From positions 3,648 to 67,647 of the forward strand of contig JAFXAN010000112.1 in NCBI GenBank assembly GCA_017517035.1: 64,000 nt of DNA. The letters are read 5' to 3'. Shown one piece after another: positions 1 to 54,256 of this stretch (its first letter is position 1; each line of letters opens with the position of its first letter). The notes beneath the pieces are model-generated. The model did no database searches. It saw only the letters and a program-made list of their open reading frames with translations, and was not told the DNA's origin. The position numbers and the translations under genes are program-made. Source of the DNA: Clostridia bacterium. Its GTDB lineage: Bacteria; Bacillota; Clostridia; Oscillospirales; CAG-272.

Positions 1-47
1 AAATTATTTCCTAAAAACTCAATACCAATACCGACTGTGCAAATCAC

Positions 48-76
48 TTGACTTTTCCGCTCTTTTATGGTACAAT
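48..76 (+). promoter_or_regulatory. sigma-70/sigA-type promoter for the recombinase gene
   Basis: TTGACT (48-53), 17-nt spacer, then TACAAT (71-76) preceded by TG (extended -10). RBS AAGGAGGTG lies at 92-100, before the ATG at 111. Confidence 0.5.
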
Positions 77-110
77 GTTATCAAGAGATACAAGGAGGTG
101 GATTTGCAAT

Positions 111-2327
111 ATGGTAAATAATGTCGCAGACTCCGAATTTGTGGGGGAAATCTTCGGTTATACTCGAATTTCGGTGGATATCGAGAGAGAAGAAGACGTC
201 AATACGAGCATTGAAAATCAGATAAGCGTTATAACAGATTTTGTTTCCAAAAATTTTCCCAAGTGCAGCCTGAAGATATACAAGGACAGAGATCGCTCGG
301 GATATACCTTTGAACAGCGTGAAGAATATCAAAAAATGCGGGGAGATTTACTTGACGGCAAGTCTAAAATCCTCATTGTAAAAGACCTTTCGAGATTTGC
401 AAGGCGAACAAGCTATGGCCTCGGCGAGTTTGAACGCTTGATAGACTCGGGCGTAAGAATTATTTCCATTATGGACAACGTAGACTATCCCACCAAGCCC
501 AACGATTGGCTCTTGATCCAGTTCCACTTTATGTACAACGAAATGCCGGTCACGGAAACCTCGCGAAAGGTGAAAATTGTCGTTTCTGACCGCCAAAAGA
601 AGGGCGACTGGATATGTGCCGCCCCATACGGTTACGTCCTGTCAGAGAAGAAAAATAAGCGGTTTGACGTGGTTCCCGACGAGGCGCAGATCATAAACGA
701 GATATTCAAGCTATATAATGACGGTTGGGGATACAAAAAAATAGCCAATTACTTGACCGACAAGCATATCCCTACCCCGAGGGCAAAAGAAAAAGAACGA
801 GCAGAAGAGGAAGGCGCAACGTATTCAAGAAAATACAACAGCGCCTGGAGTACTGCCACGATCCAGGGGATTTTGCAGAACGATTTTTACATCGGCACTC
901 TGCGTCAACACAAATATACAAGGAAGAAGATAAACGGAAAGGAAATAAAGGTCCCCGAGGAAGATATCTTTGTGTTTGAAAAAAATCACGAAGCCATAAT
1001 CGACGACAAAACCTTTCTATATGCAAAAGAGAACCTCAGACAGCGCTCCAGGGCAAATTACCGAGGCATAAAAAAATATGACACGGCATTTTCGGGATTT
1101 CTTTTTTGCGGGGATTGCGGCAGTCCGATGTTTTCCATGAGTCGCAGCGATCTTCCCCCAGCTTACAGGTGTAGCACCTATCACAAAAGAGGCACGAAGG
1201 GTTGCGAATCGCACCACACCAGAGTGGATTTTCTGAGCGGAGTTTTGAAGGATTATATCCTAATGATAAAGCAGAATTCCGAGAAAATGATTGCAGAGCT
1301 TGAAAGCTCTATAGCCGGTGAAAAAAAGGTGGTCCGTGACAGCGACAAGCTCGTAAAGCAGCTTGAAAATTCCCTTTATCGGGCAAAGGAAGAGCTGAAG
1401 CAGACCACGAAGCAAAGAATAAGCGATATCACAAAAAATCCCGATGACGCGGATATTATCACGGAAACGTATGAAGCGATCGAGACCGAACTGAAAAACA
1501 AGATACGCGGGCTCACGGAACAGATAAAATCCGCGGCTGACGAGAGAAACAATATCGTTGAGATCAACCGCGTTGCAAAAACTGTTTTTGACGTTTTTGA
1601 CAGTATTTTGGAAAAAGATAAGCTGTGCAAGATGGATATCGGTCTGATAGTCGAAAAGATAATGGTCTATAACGGTGATGTGATAGACATTAAGCTAAAA
1701 CCCGACATTGAACAGCTGTTAAATGTTGGAACATTGCCTACAAGCGAGGAAGCTGCAAATTTTAATTTTGACAGTATAGGTAGCTCATTCGGTACGAAGT
1801 ATACCCATAAGTCGGTAAATCAACCGGCTAAGGCTTATACTGTCAATGTTATATGTGAGGGCGACCCTCTCGAGATATACACGGACAGGGAAGGGGAAGT
1901 GATCTTTAAAAAGTATTCACCAATTGGTGAGCTTGCGTCATTTGCTGCTCAATATGCTGAAACGCTTTATAAGACCTGCTCTCTTTCTGTTGTTATTTGT
2001 GACAGGGATGCTGTTATTGCCTCGGCGGGCGTGCCAAAAAAGGAATATGCCGATCACAGGTTATCATCCGAGCTTGAGGGCATCATTGAGGGCAGAAATC
2101 TCTATGTTTGGCATGACGGCAATGAAAAAATTCCCGTTACAGCTGATGGAAGTGCGCATTTTGTGAGCTGTGCAATGCCCATTATGAGTGAAGGGGATAT
2201 TATTGGCTGTGTTGCCTCCCTTTGCCCCATGAACGGCGAAAGAGGCACGGAGCAGACAGCGAGTGACATTGAAAGCAAGCTTGTTCTCACTGCTGCGGGA
2301 TTTCTCGGCAAACAGCTTGAAGGTTAA
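111..2327 (+). CDS. Large serine recombinase whose reading frame continues into the 3' part of spoVT, forming a chimeric ORF across an element/host junction
   Basis: N-terminal resolvase domain (GYTRISV...SIENQ catalytic Ser region, LSRFARR), recombinase domain and a Cys-rich zinc ribbon (FCGDCGSPM...YRCSTY..GCESHH), then a long coiled-coil. There is no stop codon before SpoVT-like sequence begins at nt 1857. I trimmed the start from the ORF-track position 48 to the ATG at 111, which has a strong RBS. Confidence 0.85.
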   Translation: MVNNVADSEFVGEIFGYTRISVDIEREEDVNTSIENQISVITDFVSKNFPKCSLKIYKDRDRSGYTFEQREEYQKMRGDLLDGKSKILIVKDLSRFARRTSYGLGEFERLIDSGVRIISIMDNVDYPTKPNDWLLIQFHFMYNEMPVTETSRKVKIVVSDRQKKGDWICAAPYGYVLSEKKNKRFDVVPDEAQIINEIFKLYNDGWGYKKIANYLTDKHIPTPRAKEKERAEEEGATYSRKYNSAWSTATIQGILQNDFYIGTLRQHKYTRKKINGKEIKVPEEDIFVFEKNHEAIIDDKTFLYAKENLRQRSRANYRGIKKYDTAFSGFLFCGDCGSPMFSMSRSDLPPAYRCSTYHKRGTKGCESHHTRVDFLSGVLKDYILMIKQNSEKMIAELESSIAGEKKVVRDSDKLVKQLENSLYRAKEELKQTTKQRISDITKNPDDADIITETYEAIETELKNKIRGLTEQIKSAADERNNIVEINRVAKTVFDVFDSILEKDKLCKMDIGLIVEKIMVYNGDVIDIKLKPDIEQLLNVGTLPTSEEAANFNFDSIGSSFGTKYTHKSVNQPAKAYTVNVICEGDPLEIYTDREGEVIFKKYSPIGELASFAAQYAETLYKTCSLSVVICDRDAVIASAGVPKKEYADHRLSSELEGIIEGRNLYVWHDGNEKIPVTADGSAHFVSCAMPIMSEGDIIGCVASLCPMNGERGTEQTASDIESKLVLTAAGFLGKQLEG
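1857..2327 (+). pseudogene. spoVT: spoVT fragment lacking about 29 N-terminal codons (most of the AbrB-type DNA-binding domain)
   Basis: EGDPLEIYTDREGEVIFKKYSPIGELASFAAQYAETLY...VICDRDAVIASAG...TAAGFLGKQLEG aligns from about residue 30 to the C-terminus of Bacillus subtilis SpoVT as I recall it (REGDPLEIFVDRDGEVILKKYSPISELGDFAKEYADALY...LICDRD...TAAGFLARQMEQ). No SpoVT-like N-terminus or own start codon is present. Confidence 0.8.
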
Positions 2328-2335
2328 TTATTTAT

Positions 2336-2376
2336 AAAAAGCAGAAGCAAATGTGAAGTTTGCTTCTGCTTTTTTA
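2336..2376 (+). terminator. rho-independent terminator after spoVT
   Basis: GCAGAAGCAAA...TTTGCTTCTGC stem followed by a T-run. Confidence 0.8.
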
Positions 2377-2447
2377 CGAATGAAAAGGCTGTAAACAAAC
2401 ATATTTTTTCTGCATATTCTGTACCGAATAATATTTTGGAGGGACAT

Positions 2448-3476
2448 ATGGAAGAGAAATATTTTGCTGCATCAAATTCCGGAAAGGGTTTTGTAAGTTA
2501 TTTTGGGGAGATATTTGACCCTGAGTGCCTTGAGCATATTTACATAATAAAAGGCGGTCCGGGAACGGGAAAGAGCTATTTTATGAGGATGATTGCAACG
2601 GAAGCAGAGAAAAAAGGAAAAAATGTGGTATATTATTACTGTTCATCCGATCAAAGCTCACTTGACGGAATAATTATCGACGAAAAAATTGCGTTTCTTG
2701 ACGGTACAGCTCCCCATGACACGGATGCCACAATACCGGGAGCAGTGGAGGATCTTATTGACCTTGGTGTTTTTTGGAGTTCGGAGCAGCTTTCTTTGCT
2801 GAGAAAAGATATTGAAAAGTTGAACTGTGAAAAAAAAAGGCATTATAAGCGTGCTTATTCATATCTTGCCGCATATCACGATATAAGCGAGGGTGCTGTG
2901 AAGATCATCGAGCCTTTGATAGACAGGGAAAAAATCAAAAAAAGTATCAGAGTACTGCTTAAGGATGTTTCAAGAGGCAAAGGATACAGTCAAAGGACAG
3001 CGATCTGTGATTCAGTGGGGATGGGAGGCAGGATTCGCTTTGACACCCTTGAGAAAAAGGCAGAAAAAATACTCCGCATAAGCGATCTTTTTGACACTGC
3101 GCATTTTTATCTTGCGGAGGTGGCAAATTTCGCCTTTGAAAAGGATATGGCGATCACTCTCTCATATGATCCGATCAATTCCGAAAGACTTGATTCTGTA
3201 TATTTTGATAACGAAAAAATTCTTTTCACAGCTTGCGGAGAAGAAGAAAAAGACATCAATATGTCACGATTTATTGATAAAAAAGGACTTTCGGAGAGCA
3301 GAACTGCACTGAAAAATGCAATGAAATTGCGTTCTATAATGCTTGATGAGGCAATTCTTGCTCTTGAGGATGTCAAAAAAAGCCATTTTGCTATTGAAAA
3401 AATATATATTGGAGCTATGGATTTTGAAGCGAAAGAAAAATTCACTCATGATTTTATAAGCAGACTTGAACTTTGA
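2448..3476 (+). CDS. P-loop NTPase of unknown function
   Basis: Walker A motif GGPGTGKS near the N-terminus. ATG at 2448 follows RBS GGAGGG. No further family assignment is possible by eye. Confidence 0.7.
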   Translation: MEEKYFAASNSGKGFVSYFGEIFDPECLEHIYIIKGGPGTGKSYFMRMIATEAEKKGKNVVYYYCSSDQSSLDGIIIDEKIAFLDGTAPHDTDATIPGAVEDLIDLGVFWSSEQLSLLRKDIEKLNCEKKRHYKRAYSYLAAYHDISEGAVKIIEPLIDREKIKKSIRVLLKDVSRGKGYSQRTAICDSVGMGGRIRFDTLEKKAEKILRISDLFDTAHFYLAEVANFAFEKDMAITLSYDPINSERLDSVYFDNEKILFTACGEEEKDINMSRFIDKKGLSESRTALKNAMKLRSIMLDEAILALEDVKKSHFAIEKIYIGAMDFEAKEKFTHDFISRLEL

Positions 3477-3527
3477 GGAGTCTTATGATATAATAAGTAA
3501 AGATTATTTTGGGTAAAGGAAGTTGAA

Positions 3528-4967
3528 ATGAAAGTTGTACTTTTCGCCCTTTGCGGCTCGTATTCACATACTGCGCTTTCGGTCAGATGCTTGCGCCCTG
3601 CGCTTCTTTCGGAGGGCTATGATGTTGTTATAATTGAAGGAAATCTCCGTGACCGTTCATCGTCGCTTCTTCATTCTCTTTATTCACAGAAAGCAGATGT
3701 TTATGGATTTTCTTGCTATATTTGGAATATTGATGAGATGCTCACTCTTGCAAAGGATCTGCGTTCATTGCTTCCCGAATGCAAGATAGTTTTTGGGGGA
3801 CCGGAGGCTTCCTATGGTAATGAAAGATTTGCCGAGCTTGATTTTGTGGATTCGGTTGTTTGCGGAGCGGGAGAAAAGATTTTTTCTGAGATTTGTCGAG
3901 ATGTGGCAGCAAAAAAGCCTCTTGAAAAAGTTTACAGGGCTGAAAAGGTTGGGATCACAGATGGAATATTATATGAAGAGCGAGAGCTTATGGGAAAAGG
4001 GAAGAGCATTCTTTATTATGAATCTTCAAGAGGATGCCCTTTTTCCTGTGCTTACTGCCTTTCCTCTGCCGAATGCGGCGTTACTGCCAAGAGCGCAGAA
4101 CAGACACTCTCGGAGCTTCTGGATTTTGAGAAGCTTGGTGAAGATTACAAGATCATAAAATTTATCGACAGAACATTTAACTTTGATATTTCGAGAGCCA
4201 ATGACATCTGGCGCAGTCTTCTTGACGAAAAATATACGAAGAAATATCATTTTGAGGTTTGTGCATCACTTCTGAATGATGAAAGCTTCAACATTTTCAG
4301 AGAAATGCCCGAAGGAAAAATTCAGCTTGAGGTGGGATTACAGAGCACAAACGAAAGGACTCTTTCCGAGATCGCAAGACATCTTGATGTGAACAAAACC
4401 CTTGAAAACTGCCGTCGGATAAAGGATATGGGGAATATTCATCTTCATCTTGATCTCATAGCAGGTCTGCCATATGAGGATATGGAAAGCTTCAGGCGCT
4501 CGTTCGATGCGGCATATCCTGCTTGCCACAAGCTTCAGCTTGGATTTTTGAAGCTTCTTCACGGTACAGCACTTCGCAAGAACTTTGAAAAATACGGCTA
4601 TAAATTTCTTTCCGGAGCACCTTATACCGTGCTTTGCAATGATCATATAACCTATGATGAAATGCACTCTCTTGAAAAAATATCTTATCTTCTTGAGCGA
4701 TATCATGAGAGCGGAAATTTTGATAAATGTCTTGATTTTGTGATGGAGAAAACAAGCTCTCCCTTTGATTTTTATATGGGACTTTCTCACTTTATTGAGA
4801 AAAATGACGGTAGAGAGATTCAGAAGATATCACAATCCGATGCGTTTTCATTGCTTTATCGCTATGCTTTAGGACTACTTTGCGAGACGGATGCTGAACA
4901 TTTTTCTGTTCTTATGCACGAGGATTTTGCCGCCCGTGAGGTGCGAAAAATGCCGAGACTCAAATAG
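3528..4967 (+). CDS. B12-binding-domain radical SAM protein
   Basis: N-terminal B12-binding-like Rossmann region followed by the radical SAM motif CPFSCAYC (CxxxCxxC). Confidence 0.8.
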   Translation: MKVVLFALCGSYSHTALSVRCLRPALLSEGYDVVIIEGNLRDRSSSLLHSLYSQKADVYGFSCYIWNIDEMLTLAKDLRSLLPECKIVFGGPEASYGNERFAELDFVDSVVCGAGEKIFSEICRDVAAKKPLEKVYRAEKVGITDGILYEERELMGKGKSILYYESSRGCPFSCAYCLSSAECGVTAKSAEQTLSELLDFEKLGEDYKIIKFIDRTFNFDISRANDIWRSLLDEKYTKKYHFEVCASLLNDESFNIFREMPEGKIQLEVGLQSTNERTLSEIARHLDVNKTLENCRRIKDMGNIHLHLDLIAGLPYEDMESFRRSFDAAYPACHKLQLGFLKLLHGTALRKNFEKYGYKFLSGAPYTVLCNDHITYDEMHSLEKISYLLERYHESGNFDKCLDFVMEKTSSPFDFYMGLSHFIEKNDGREIQKISQSDAFSLLYRYALGLLCETDAEHFSVLMHEDFAAREVRKMPRLK

Positions 4968-6686: not shown

Positions 6687-6947
6687 TTAGTCGGAAATGT
6701 AGGGCAGGAGAGCAACCTGACGCGCACGCTTAATAGCGGTTGTCAGCTCACGCTGATGCTTTGCACATGTTCCGGAGATTCTTCTGGGAAGAATCTTGCC
6801 GCGCTCGGAAATGAACTTTCTGAGCTTTGCGGAATCCTTATAGTCGATATAAGCAACCTTGTTCTCACAGAATACACAAACCTTTTTTCTCTTGCGGTTA
6901 TTCTTGTAAGCAGGGCGCTGAACTTCTCTCTCGACGTTGTTATCCAT
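6687..6947 (-). CDS. rpsR: 30S ribosomal protein S18
   Basis: KKVCVFC...IDYKD...[27 protein letters not shown] is characteristic S18 sequence. It sits in a conserved rpsF-ssb-rpsR arrangement. Confidence 0.95.
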
Positions 6948-54180: not shown

Positions 54181-54256
54181 TGGTGCTCCATTGCGGAATC
54201 GAACCGCAGACACCTTGATTAAAAGTCAAGTGCTCTACCGGCTGAGCTAATGGGGC
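54181..54256 (-). tRNA. tRNA-Lys (anticodon UUU), CCA-encoded
   Basis: Hand-folded cloverleaf: D stem GCTC/GAGC, anticodon stem CTTGA/TCAAG with loop CTTTTAA, T stem TGCGG/CCGCA with loop TTCGATT, and a 3' ACCA end. The acceptor stem has one C3-A70 mismatch. Confidence 0.9.

Follow-up and report, generated by a model that had tools for sequence, protein, structure and literature searches.

How does a recombinase come to end as a sporulation regulator? The question is raised at the very start of a 64,000-nucleotide stretch of DNA from Clostridia bacterium (Oscillospirales, CAG-272; assembly GCA_017517035.1, contig JAFXAN010000112.1, positions 3,648 to 67,647 of the forward strand), which we name the window, where a single open reading frame (ORF) begins as a large serine recombinase (LSR) and finishes as the C-terminal part of SpoVT. 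Such an ORF might encode an authentic multidomain protein, or it might be the trace left by a mobile element that interrupted spoVT. We find that positions 1-2327 of the window are the right junction (attR) of an integrative mobile element inserted by its LSR in codon 32 of spoVT, and that the 738-residue chimera is a by-product of the geometry of the attachment (att) site, not a designed domain architecture. Taken as a whole, the explanation that combines this junction with a putative forespore switch, resembling those of the skin and SPbeta elements, is one that we hold with good confidence. The parts of the window on which the argument turns are these.

111..2327, plus strand: chimeric ORF of 738 amino acids counted from the ATG at 111, in which the LSR runs in frame into the 3' part of spoVT.
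111..1862, plus strand: element-derived part of the ORF, encoding resolvase, recombinase, zinc-ribbon and coiled-coil segments and a conserved tail (..NFNFDS..KAYTVNVI..), delimited by Pfam, alignment and comparison with the empty site.
1865..2327, plus strand: host spoVT 3' fragment, from the rest of codon 32 to the stop, with the GAF-like SpoVT_C domain, assigned by identity to the intact SpoVT P0512 and by Pfam.
2448-3476, plus strand: host flank, gene of a P-loop ATPase (Pfam), used as a synteny marker for the empty site.
3528-4967, plus strand: host flank, B12-binding radical-SAM/DUF4080 gene (Pfam), used in the same way.

The most direct evidence is that the same species also exists with the site empty. 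P0512, an intact SpoVT of 185 residues that carries the AbrB-type N-terminal domain, is identical over its residues 30-185 (100% amino acid identity) to the C-terminal part of the window's chimera. The contig that encodes it (L120, GCA_045540725.1) shares 97.6% identity with the window over 3516 nucleotides, from nucleotide 1855 to the contig end, and displays the order GDPD, spoVT, ATPase, radical-SAM gene, with no homology to the element; conversely, the window DNA to the left of nucleotide 1855 has no counterpart in that strain. A related species (L016) has an empty site too, its homology to the window beginning at nucleotide 1857 and the ATPase and radical-SAM genes following an intact spoVT. 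Because empty sites are found both in the same species and in a related one, we can understand the window as bearing an attR junction, the insertion being polymorphic in its species. Protein clusters built at 90% identity likewise hold both fused (731-738 residues) and intact (178-185 residues) forms of SpoVT. A look-up of the downstream ATPase, made for a same-species empty site, returned occupied contigs only, and P0122, a 96% identical SpoVT considered as a same-species empty allele, was discarded as it belongs to another species and lies in a different neighbourhood.

The ORF itself agrees with this view. Pfam places Resolvase at residues 14-167 (6e-16), Recombinase at 189-312 (2e-24), Zn_ribbon_recom at 327-383 (2e-12) and SpoVT_C (PF15714) at 607-737 (3e-35, the whole model being covered). 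In the recombinase alignment, Y17, R19 and S21 (YxRISVD), which comprise the catalytic serine motif, are invariant, as are the zinc-ribbon cysteines C333, C336, C354 and C365; the coiled-coil was read from the sequence by eye. A TTG at 48, upstream of the ATG at 111, is likewise open in frame, and the exact 738-residue protein is found on 8 public contigs. The NCBIfam model of spoVT, TIGR02851, aligns by its positions 27-180 of 180 with residues 581-737; its score of 151 bits stays below the cut-off (235.9), a deficit expected of a gene that has lost its N-terminal domain. There is no Pfam match to the AbrB-type domain PF04014 in the chimera, and the AbrB-like N-terminal motif of SpoVT is absent across the whole 64-kb window. 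A reading made beforehand from the sequence only (hereafter the sequence-only reading) had described a complete LSR running in frame into about the last 156 residues of SpoVT, with the AbrB-type N-terminus missing, and had proposed the integration of a mobile element; all this is borne out, and the seam that it placed at nucleotide 1857 is right to within a few bases.

The same reading had conceded that full-length fusions conserved across unrelated genomes would point to a genuine domain architecture, and had asked whether such chimeras recur. They do recur, and massively. The four-domain architecture is present in 120/120 of the best protein clusters, at 51-91% identity, and an in-frame junction into spoVT is seen in about 70 of 80 genome loci, picked by scanning species-representative genomes with an alignment of the recombinase part alone, so that chance read-through may be put aside. 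One might then consider a vertically inherited recombinase-SpoVT_C protein, the real spoVT being located elsewhere, and the architecture common to more than 120 clusters is what such a protein would display. Conservation, however, is where the agreement ends, for the two halves have different histories, and the condition that the sequence-only reading had set was too strict. Of the 173 protein pairs whose LSRs are 90% or more identical, 102 have less than 70% identity in SpoVT_C; in the pairs P0026/P0038 and P0092/P0097, LSRs that are 100% identical are joined to SpoVT parts only 45% and 55% identical, respectively. The converse, alike SpoVT parts behind diverged LSRs, was not found among the compared proteins, and the two variable residues directly before GDPLEI track the recombinase, not the SpoVT part. 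Discordant histories of this kind are those of an integration junction, not of a domain architecture. Together with the same-species empty allele and its identical downstream synteny, the absence of the DNA left of nucleotide 1855 from the empty-site strain, a relative whose left junction (attL) holds the missing spoVT 5' fragment and excised forms devoid of any SpoVT part (both described below), they leave the multidomain protein refuted here for all practical purposes. An argument for long vertical inheritance of the insertion in place, drawn from the similar synonymous divergence of LSR and host genes between the window and the locus L019, was too weak to keep, since the insertion is polymorphic in the window's species and the cargo unrelated.

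Where, then, did recombination take place? Three features of the window define the site.

1841..1856, plus strand: attP-derived half-site (P arm), TGTCAATGTTATATGT, within the recombinase coding sequence, defined by conservation in 62 loci.
1839..1888, no strand: attR, consisting of P arm, crossover and B' arm, from alignment with intact spoVT genes, about 25 bp per side being assumed from typical LSR sites.
1863..1864, no strand: inferred crossover dinucleotide GA, bases 1 and 2 of the Asp32 codon of spoVT, at the symmetry centre of attP.

Across the 62 loci the left arm, TGTCAATGTTATCAGT, which spans -22 to -7 relative to the central GA, is conserved at all three codon positions, while the host side of the junction has the 3-nucleotide periodicity of coding constraint. 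Conservation at every codon position indicates a DNA site embedded in the recombinase ORF. The other boundary is seen in a relative: Ruminococcus sp. (L050) holds a complete element of 11.6 kb, with an attL made of spoVT codons 1-33 followed by element DNA and an attR like that of the window. Both junctions have the core GGCGACCCGTT in common and together rebuild an intact spoVT, and the attP reconstructed from them consists of inverted arms, TCAACGTTATCTGT .. GCAGACAACGTTGA, symmetric around GA. An inverted copy of the P arm forms the P' arm in L050, in L044, in the phage-like L108 and in six metagenome attP contigs; reconstructed and observed attP sites alike are symmetric about GA over 19 nucleotides on each side, a palindrome of about 40 bp. 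These sequences thus have inverted-repeat arms around a polar 2-bp crossover, as LSR-type att sites have, cleavage at GA being deduced from the symmetry. The target core, GGCGACCC, sits in the most conserved stretch of spoVT. In the first loci examined no spoVT 5' motif was found within 10 kb upstream; the window's own attL is expected to read ..ATGCGCATCCGTGAGGGCGA and then a ACATATAACATTGACA-like sequence in inverted copy.

The excised state has been captured as well. In a family of phage-like contigs (L108-L111), the ORF of a 615-residue LSR relative crosses CAATGTTGTAAGAGAAGGT-GA-AGGATTTGTAACAACATTG and stops 30 codons on. The six metagenome contigs (L139, L143, L150, L151, L153 and L167) carry the same palindrome with the core GGCGACCC, and there the LSR stops 8-15 codons after Gly-Asp; that of L139 shares 80% identity with the LSR integrated in spoVT of Flavonifractor sp. 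An100. L139 and L153 are linear contigs without terminal overlap. Past their attP sites (3844-3883 and 3390-3429, respectively), both continue into a nucleoside-type ABC transporter operon, presumably cargo of the left end. With attP lying inside the LSR ORF, the recombinase has a short tail when excised and a SpoVT tail of about 155 residues when integrated. In this way several proposals of the sequence-only reading found their counterpart in real DNA: an attP core inside the 3' end of the recombinase gene, a C-terminus that differs between the two states, and a missing spoVT 5' end at the far boundary, which is met in L050. The 5' end is also found in five loci of opposite orientation.

In these five loci (L024, L025, L028, L061 and L085), the spoVT 5' fragment adjoins the recombinase, and the LSR reads into its antisense strand, acquiring unrelated tails of 6-95 residues. 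The sites lie at about 11729-11830 in L024, 3107-3200 in L025, 2293-2380 in L028, 6706-6800 in L085 and 5567-5660 in L061. The crossover register is TC in four of the five, L061 having GA together with a host Gly-Ser-Pro variant. In serine integrases the polarity of integration is set by the central dinucleotide alone, and the TC register looks like natural evidence of this rule.

Several records that could have passed for further excised forms had to be rejected. Two GenBank entries named 'Bacteriophage sp.', MT836658.1 (L099) and MT839487.1 (L100), are pieces of chromosome with an attR junction and not phage attP forms, host genes of the recN, argR and nadK type coming after the recombinase-SpoVT fusion in L099. 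The only relative in IMG/VR, UViG_3300018495_003548 (L012), is itself an attR junction whose contig ends inside spoVT. A scan of viral contigs for the attP pattern gave a single chance match in a tail-fibre gene, and plasmid records yielded distant LSRs only.

What of the tail itself? It is tempting to see the chimera as adaptive, its GAF-like tail sensing the forespore signal to which SpoVT itself responds, or altering oligomerisation or stability, so that the activity or direction of the recombinase would be tied to its state of integration. The in-frame fusion is, after all, universal in the common orientation, it is probably translated, from a sigma-A-type promoter, and the integrated and excised forms do differ at their C-terminus. 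Yet in-frame continuation is automatic once attP lies inside the ORF, fully identical LSRs are joined to SpoVT tails as little as 45% identical, the recombinases of opposite orientation make do with unrelated tails, and the 8-30 residues that end the excised forms have no conserved feature. We therefore regard an adaptive role as quite improbable: with identical LSRs carrying divergent tails, and with the unrelated tails of the opposite orientation, the chimeric tail is probably incidental, as judged from these comparisons.

The element family is defined by its recombinase much more than by what it transports. The LSR abuts the junction in all loci examined, while cargo is unrelated between loci, which have in common the recombinase only, plus in many of them a small upstream gene. 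In L050 the cargo comprises a hydrolase, a GH16 protein, an AraC regulator, a solute-binding protein and an AAA_25 protein; in L006 and L102-L119, a NikA-like protein, a relaxase and RhuM and, more to the left, Ser/Thr kinases and FHA proteins; in L007, SLH proteins and a rhamnosidase. The phage-like genome of L108 includes NrdD, dUTPase and a GH25 lysin. The window's species contributes an integrase-like ORF and a DUF4143 ATPase. Varied cargo thus travels with this one LSR family: a phage-like genome, mobilisable elements bearing a relaxase, and islands for carbohydrate use. The site is occupied in many Oscillospiraceae, Acutalibacteraceae, Ruminococcus, Flavonifractor and Lachnospiraceae, and it is polymorphic within species; cultured carriers include Flavonifractor sp. 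An100 and An306, Ruminococcus sp. Marseille-P6503, Eubacterium sp. MSJ-21, Hominimerdicola aceti and R. flavefaciens. The rest of the window's element lies to the left of the window, as had been supposed, and is found in four independent assemblies of its strain (L001-L004). All four end within about 100 nucleotides of one another, approximately 3.1-3.7 kb upstream of the recombinase and upstream of the integrase-like ORF, a pattern that suggests a repeat within the element, or else a boundary there that varies between strains. The samples in which the window's strain is present include ERZ27256852, ERZ27256862, SRR12529313, SRR12529307 and SRR31077521.

It is worth placing this family among the systems already known. 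Intervening elements have been described in sigK, spsM, spoVFB, spoVR, gerE, cotJC, spoIIID and yabG, all of them mother-cell genes, in keeping with what the sequence-only reading had stated of the known cases; spoVT, by comparison, is sigma-F/G dependent in C. difficile. The resemblance to skin, which splits sigK (with SpoIVCA in B. subtilis and CD1231/CD1234 in C. difficile), is considerable: an LSR sits at the element's edge, next to the 3' fragment of a split sporulation gene, and the cargo is highly variable, the recombinase alone being common. In the skin element of C. difficile the LSR is driven by sigma-A and a directionality factor of 72 residues is under sigma-E (PMC5025042); here we find a sigma-A-type LSR promoter and a small candidate factor under a promoter of sporulation type. 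The differences are equally instructive. The target is a forespore gene, not a mother-cell gene, and the promoter of the candidate factor is of forespore type, not sigma-E, so that excision would hit the germline copy. Moreover, the attP centre of the spoVT element lies inside the LSR ORF, hence a chimeric protein is encoded, and spoVT elements are mobile, polymorphic and present in more than one lineage. SPbeta in spsM (SprA/SprB), as well as the gin, vfbin, vrin and yabG-intervening elements, are similarly serine-recombinase elements, phage or non-phage, that split sporulation genes and rebuild them through precise excision; gin shows that non-phage elements, too, do so. Their targets, unlike spoVT, are mother-cell genes, with excision confined to the mother cell while the spore keeps the element, and this is not possible for spoVT. 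As with other intervening elements, the spoVT element lies inside a coding sequence and both gene fragments are kept (the window's attR against attB; attL and attR in L050), whereas the mother-cell target with germline retention is not to be found here. What is new is therefore an intervening element of a known kind with a target in the germline compartment. We found no literature linking spoVT to a recombinase, a prophage, an att site or an intervening element, subscription journals lying outside the coverage.

Two further parallels come from phages. In active lysogeny, of which the comK prophage of Listeria is an example, reversible excision restores a host gene without lysis and is followed by re-integration; the same behaviour is proposed here for the spoVT element, with the trigger being a developmental sigma factor in a spore compartment. 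In the integration-dependent immunity of mycobacteriophages, attP lies in the repressor gene, a tyrosine integrase is at work, and the change of tail has a demonstrated regulatory role. The spoVT element likewise has attP in a coding sequence and a C-terminus changed by integration, but the gene concerned is that of the serine recombinase itself and the tail is apparently incidental.

How the host lives with a split spoVT is the second question that the locus raises, and regulatory signals are where an answer may be sought. Two of them lie in the window.

48..76, plus strand: sigma-A-type promoter of the recombinase gene, TTGACT, 17 nucleotides, TGgTACAAT, with an extended -10 (consensus scan, 10/12 matches plus TG).
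2341..2375, plus strand: probable intrinsic terminator of spoVT, GCAGAAGCAAA..TTTGCTTCTGC then a T run, read from the sequence and not listed by a simple terminator scan.

An arrangement TTGACA-17-TACAAT recurs in many related loci between the LSR and the small upstream gene. The latter, unannotated and conserved, encodes about 70-87 residues (typically some 80), is found no more than 4 kb upstream of the LSR in 45/78 loci, directly upstream in most of those, and has more than 1,100 homologs; it is present in the phage-like L108 as well. In the window's species it is found at 1759-1986 of L002, where a DUF4143/AAA_14 ATPase gene (2198-3559, minus strand) stands between it and the recombinase (3758), the two being adjacent in most relatives. 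Upstream of the small gene is a motif, GywTA-N15-GGnrAnAnT, that ends about 19-26 nucleotides before the start codon. Scored with sigma consensus strings of the B. subtilis literature, 15 of 35 non-redundant upstream regions match sigma-F at 10 or more of 11 positions, as against 0.93 in shuffled sequences (at most 4 in 200 shuffles); the match rate is 2.5% for all ORF upstreams and 3.7% for starts that bear a ribosome-binding site. In the same 35 regions the sigma-G model is mildly enriched, and the sigma-E, sigma-K and sigma-A models are not. From its position, size, conservation and promoter, we infer that the small gene is a candidate recombination directionality factor.

These elements could be assembled into a mechanism that would work like skin or SPbeta. 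The LSR would be made constitutively from its sigma-A-type promoter; the protein of about 80 residues, under a sigma-F/G-type promoter, would act as the directionality factor and set off precise excision in the forespore, so that spoVT is whole again at the place and time of need. Forespore excision is proposed because the sigma factor reading the small gene would be that of the compartment where spoVT is expressed and required. In keeping with this, the intact spoVT of a close relative of the window's host (L016-L018) has a forespore-type promoter matching 10/11 positions, and the same promoter can be read by eye upstream of spoVT in L120. Since the germline chromosome would lose the element through such an excision, the circle would probably be retained in the spore, and the LSR alone, with its short native tail, would re-insert it at outgrowth, with occasional loss. 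Insertion polymorphism within species fits such loss. The intact spoVT fragments, the sigma-A-type promoter of the LSR and the small gene with its forespore promoter suggest, as far as motifs can tell, a switch and not a dead insertion. A programmed and reversible rearrangement of the germline, with the circle trapped in the spore, is put forward as a tentative proposal, to which we grant somewhat less than an even chance.

Weighed against it must be the possibility that spoVT is simply a safe harbour, or a dead end, chosen for the extreme conservation of codons 27-38 and for its dispensability in growth. Carriers would then be spoVT mutants, asporogenous or making altered spores, and excision would serve transfer or phage induction only, for which the relaxase or phage-like genes of many elements already provide a reason. 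The location of the target core in the most conserved stretch of the gene and the polymorphism of the site within species are both in line with this, and so are copies that have decayed. The attL of L044 (at about 612-650) reads RIRMGAP and lacks a base at the crossover; in L105 (5417-7563) and L113 (11017-13163), the LSR is split into ORFs of 313 and 383 residues; some insertions are thus probably locked in. Some hosts are, furthermore, regarded as non-sporulating, a situation that a safe-harbour insertion would fit instead of a switch: among them are Flavonifractor, of which Flavonifractor plautii is labelled non-sporulating in the literature, and R. flavefaciens. On the other side stands the integrity of the fragments, for among LSR-selected loci not cut by a contig end, 66/66 spoVT 3' fragments are full length, with a FLGKQME-type C-terminus, and the 5' fragments, seven of which were recovered (one each from L050 and L044, five from the opposite-orientation loci), are intact in six cases, that of L044 being degenerate at the junction. 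The small gene next to the LSR has a forespore-type promoter, not a sigma-A or SOS-type signal. Finally, spoVT is sigma-F/G dependent in C. difficile and its loss abolishes heat-resistant spores (PMC3789822), a price that would be costly for gut spore-formers. A mere safe harbour accordingly appears to us rather unlikely.

The reversible switch, for its part, has to contend with more than the decayed copies and the non-sporulating hosts. Intact 3' fragments could equally reflect recent insertions. The sigma-F-like motif is weaker in the remaining upstream regions, including that of the window's species (about 9/11) and that of the abundant L112-type element. The small protein has no match in Pfam or PHROG, no detected similarity to a known directionality factor and no fold match in the PDB, its AlphaFold model being of moderate confidence (pLDDT 73), so that its assignment as a directionality factor could not be strengthened in this way; known directionality factors are structurally diverse (PMC12286644). 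The excised forms come from metagenome contigs, which give neither timing nor cell compartment, and the retention of the circle in the spore, followed by its re-integration, is pure inference on our part.

Whichever way carriers manage, a large and mobile family that splits a forespore regulator breaks the rule, seen in all described cases, whereby only mother-cell genes are interrupted; excision in the mother cell is harmless to inheritance, since that cell dies. Three outcomes can be envisaged: carriers forgo normal spores, the element is shed at each sporulation, or it is excised and re-integrated across dormancy. Each of these bears on the balance that gut Clostridia strike between sporulation, transmission and mobile-element load. 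If the reversible germline switch were true, it would mark the first case of a forespore gene with an intervening element, and one widespread in gut Clostridia, and the inheritance, loss and possibly transfer of the element would be coupled to the spore cycle. There is a practical side as well. Annotation labels chimeric ORFs 'recombinase family protein' or 'SpoVT C-terminal domain protein', so that a split spoVT goes unseen in censuses of sporulation genes. For those in need of recombination tools, the family offers natural triples of LSR, attP and attB with a common defined core, together with a candidate directionality factor.

Two minor observations may be added. In L046 (about 6791-6830) and L071 (about 2081-2170), LSRs of the family end, immediately past the GA register, in sequence that is neither spoVT nor palindromic (..NVISSGEG* and ..NVISSGEPSRICLG..); such ends may be secondary integration sites or rearrangements. 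In the window itself, the sole tRNA or Rfam match of the 64 kb is a tRNA-Lys(ttt) at 54181-54256 on the minus strand.

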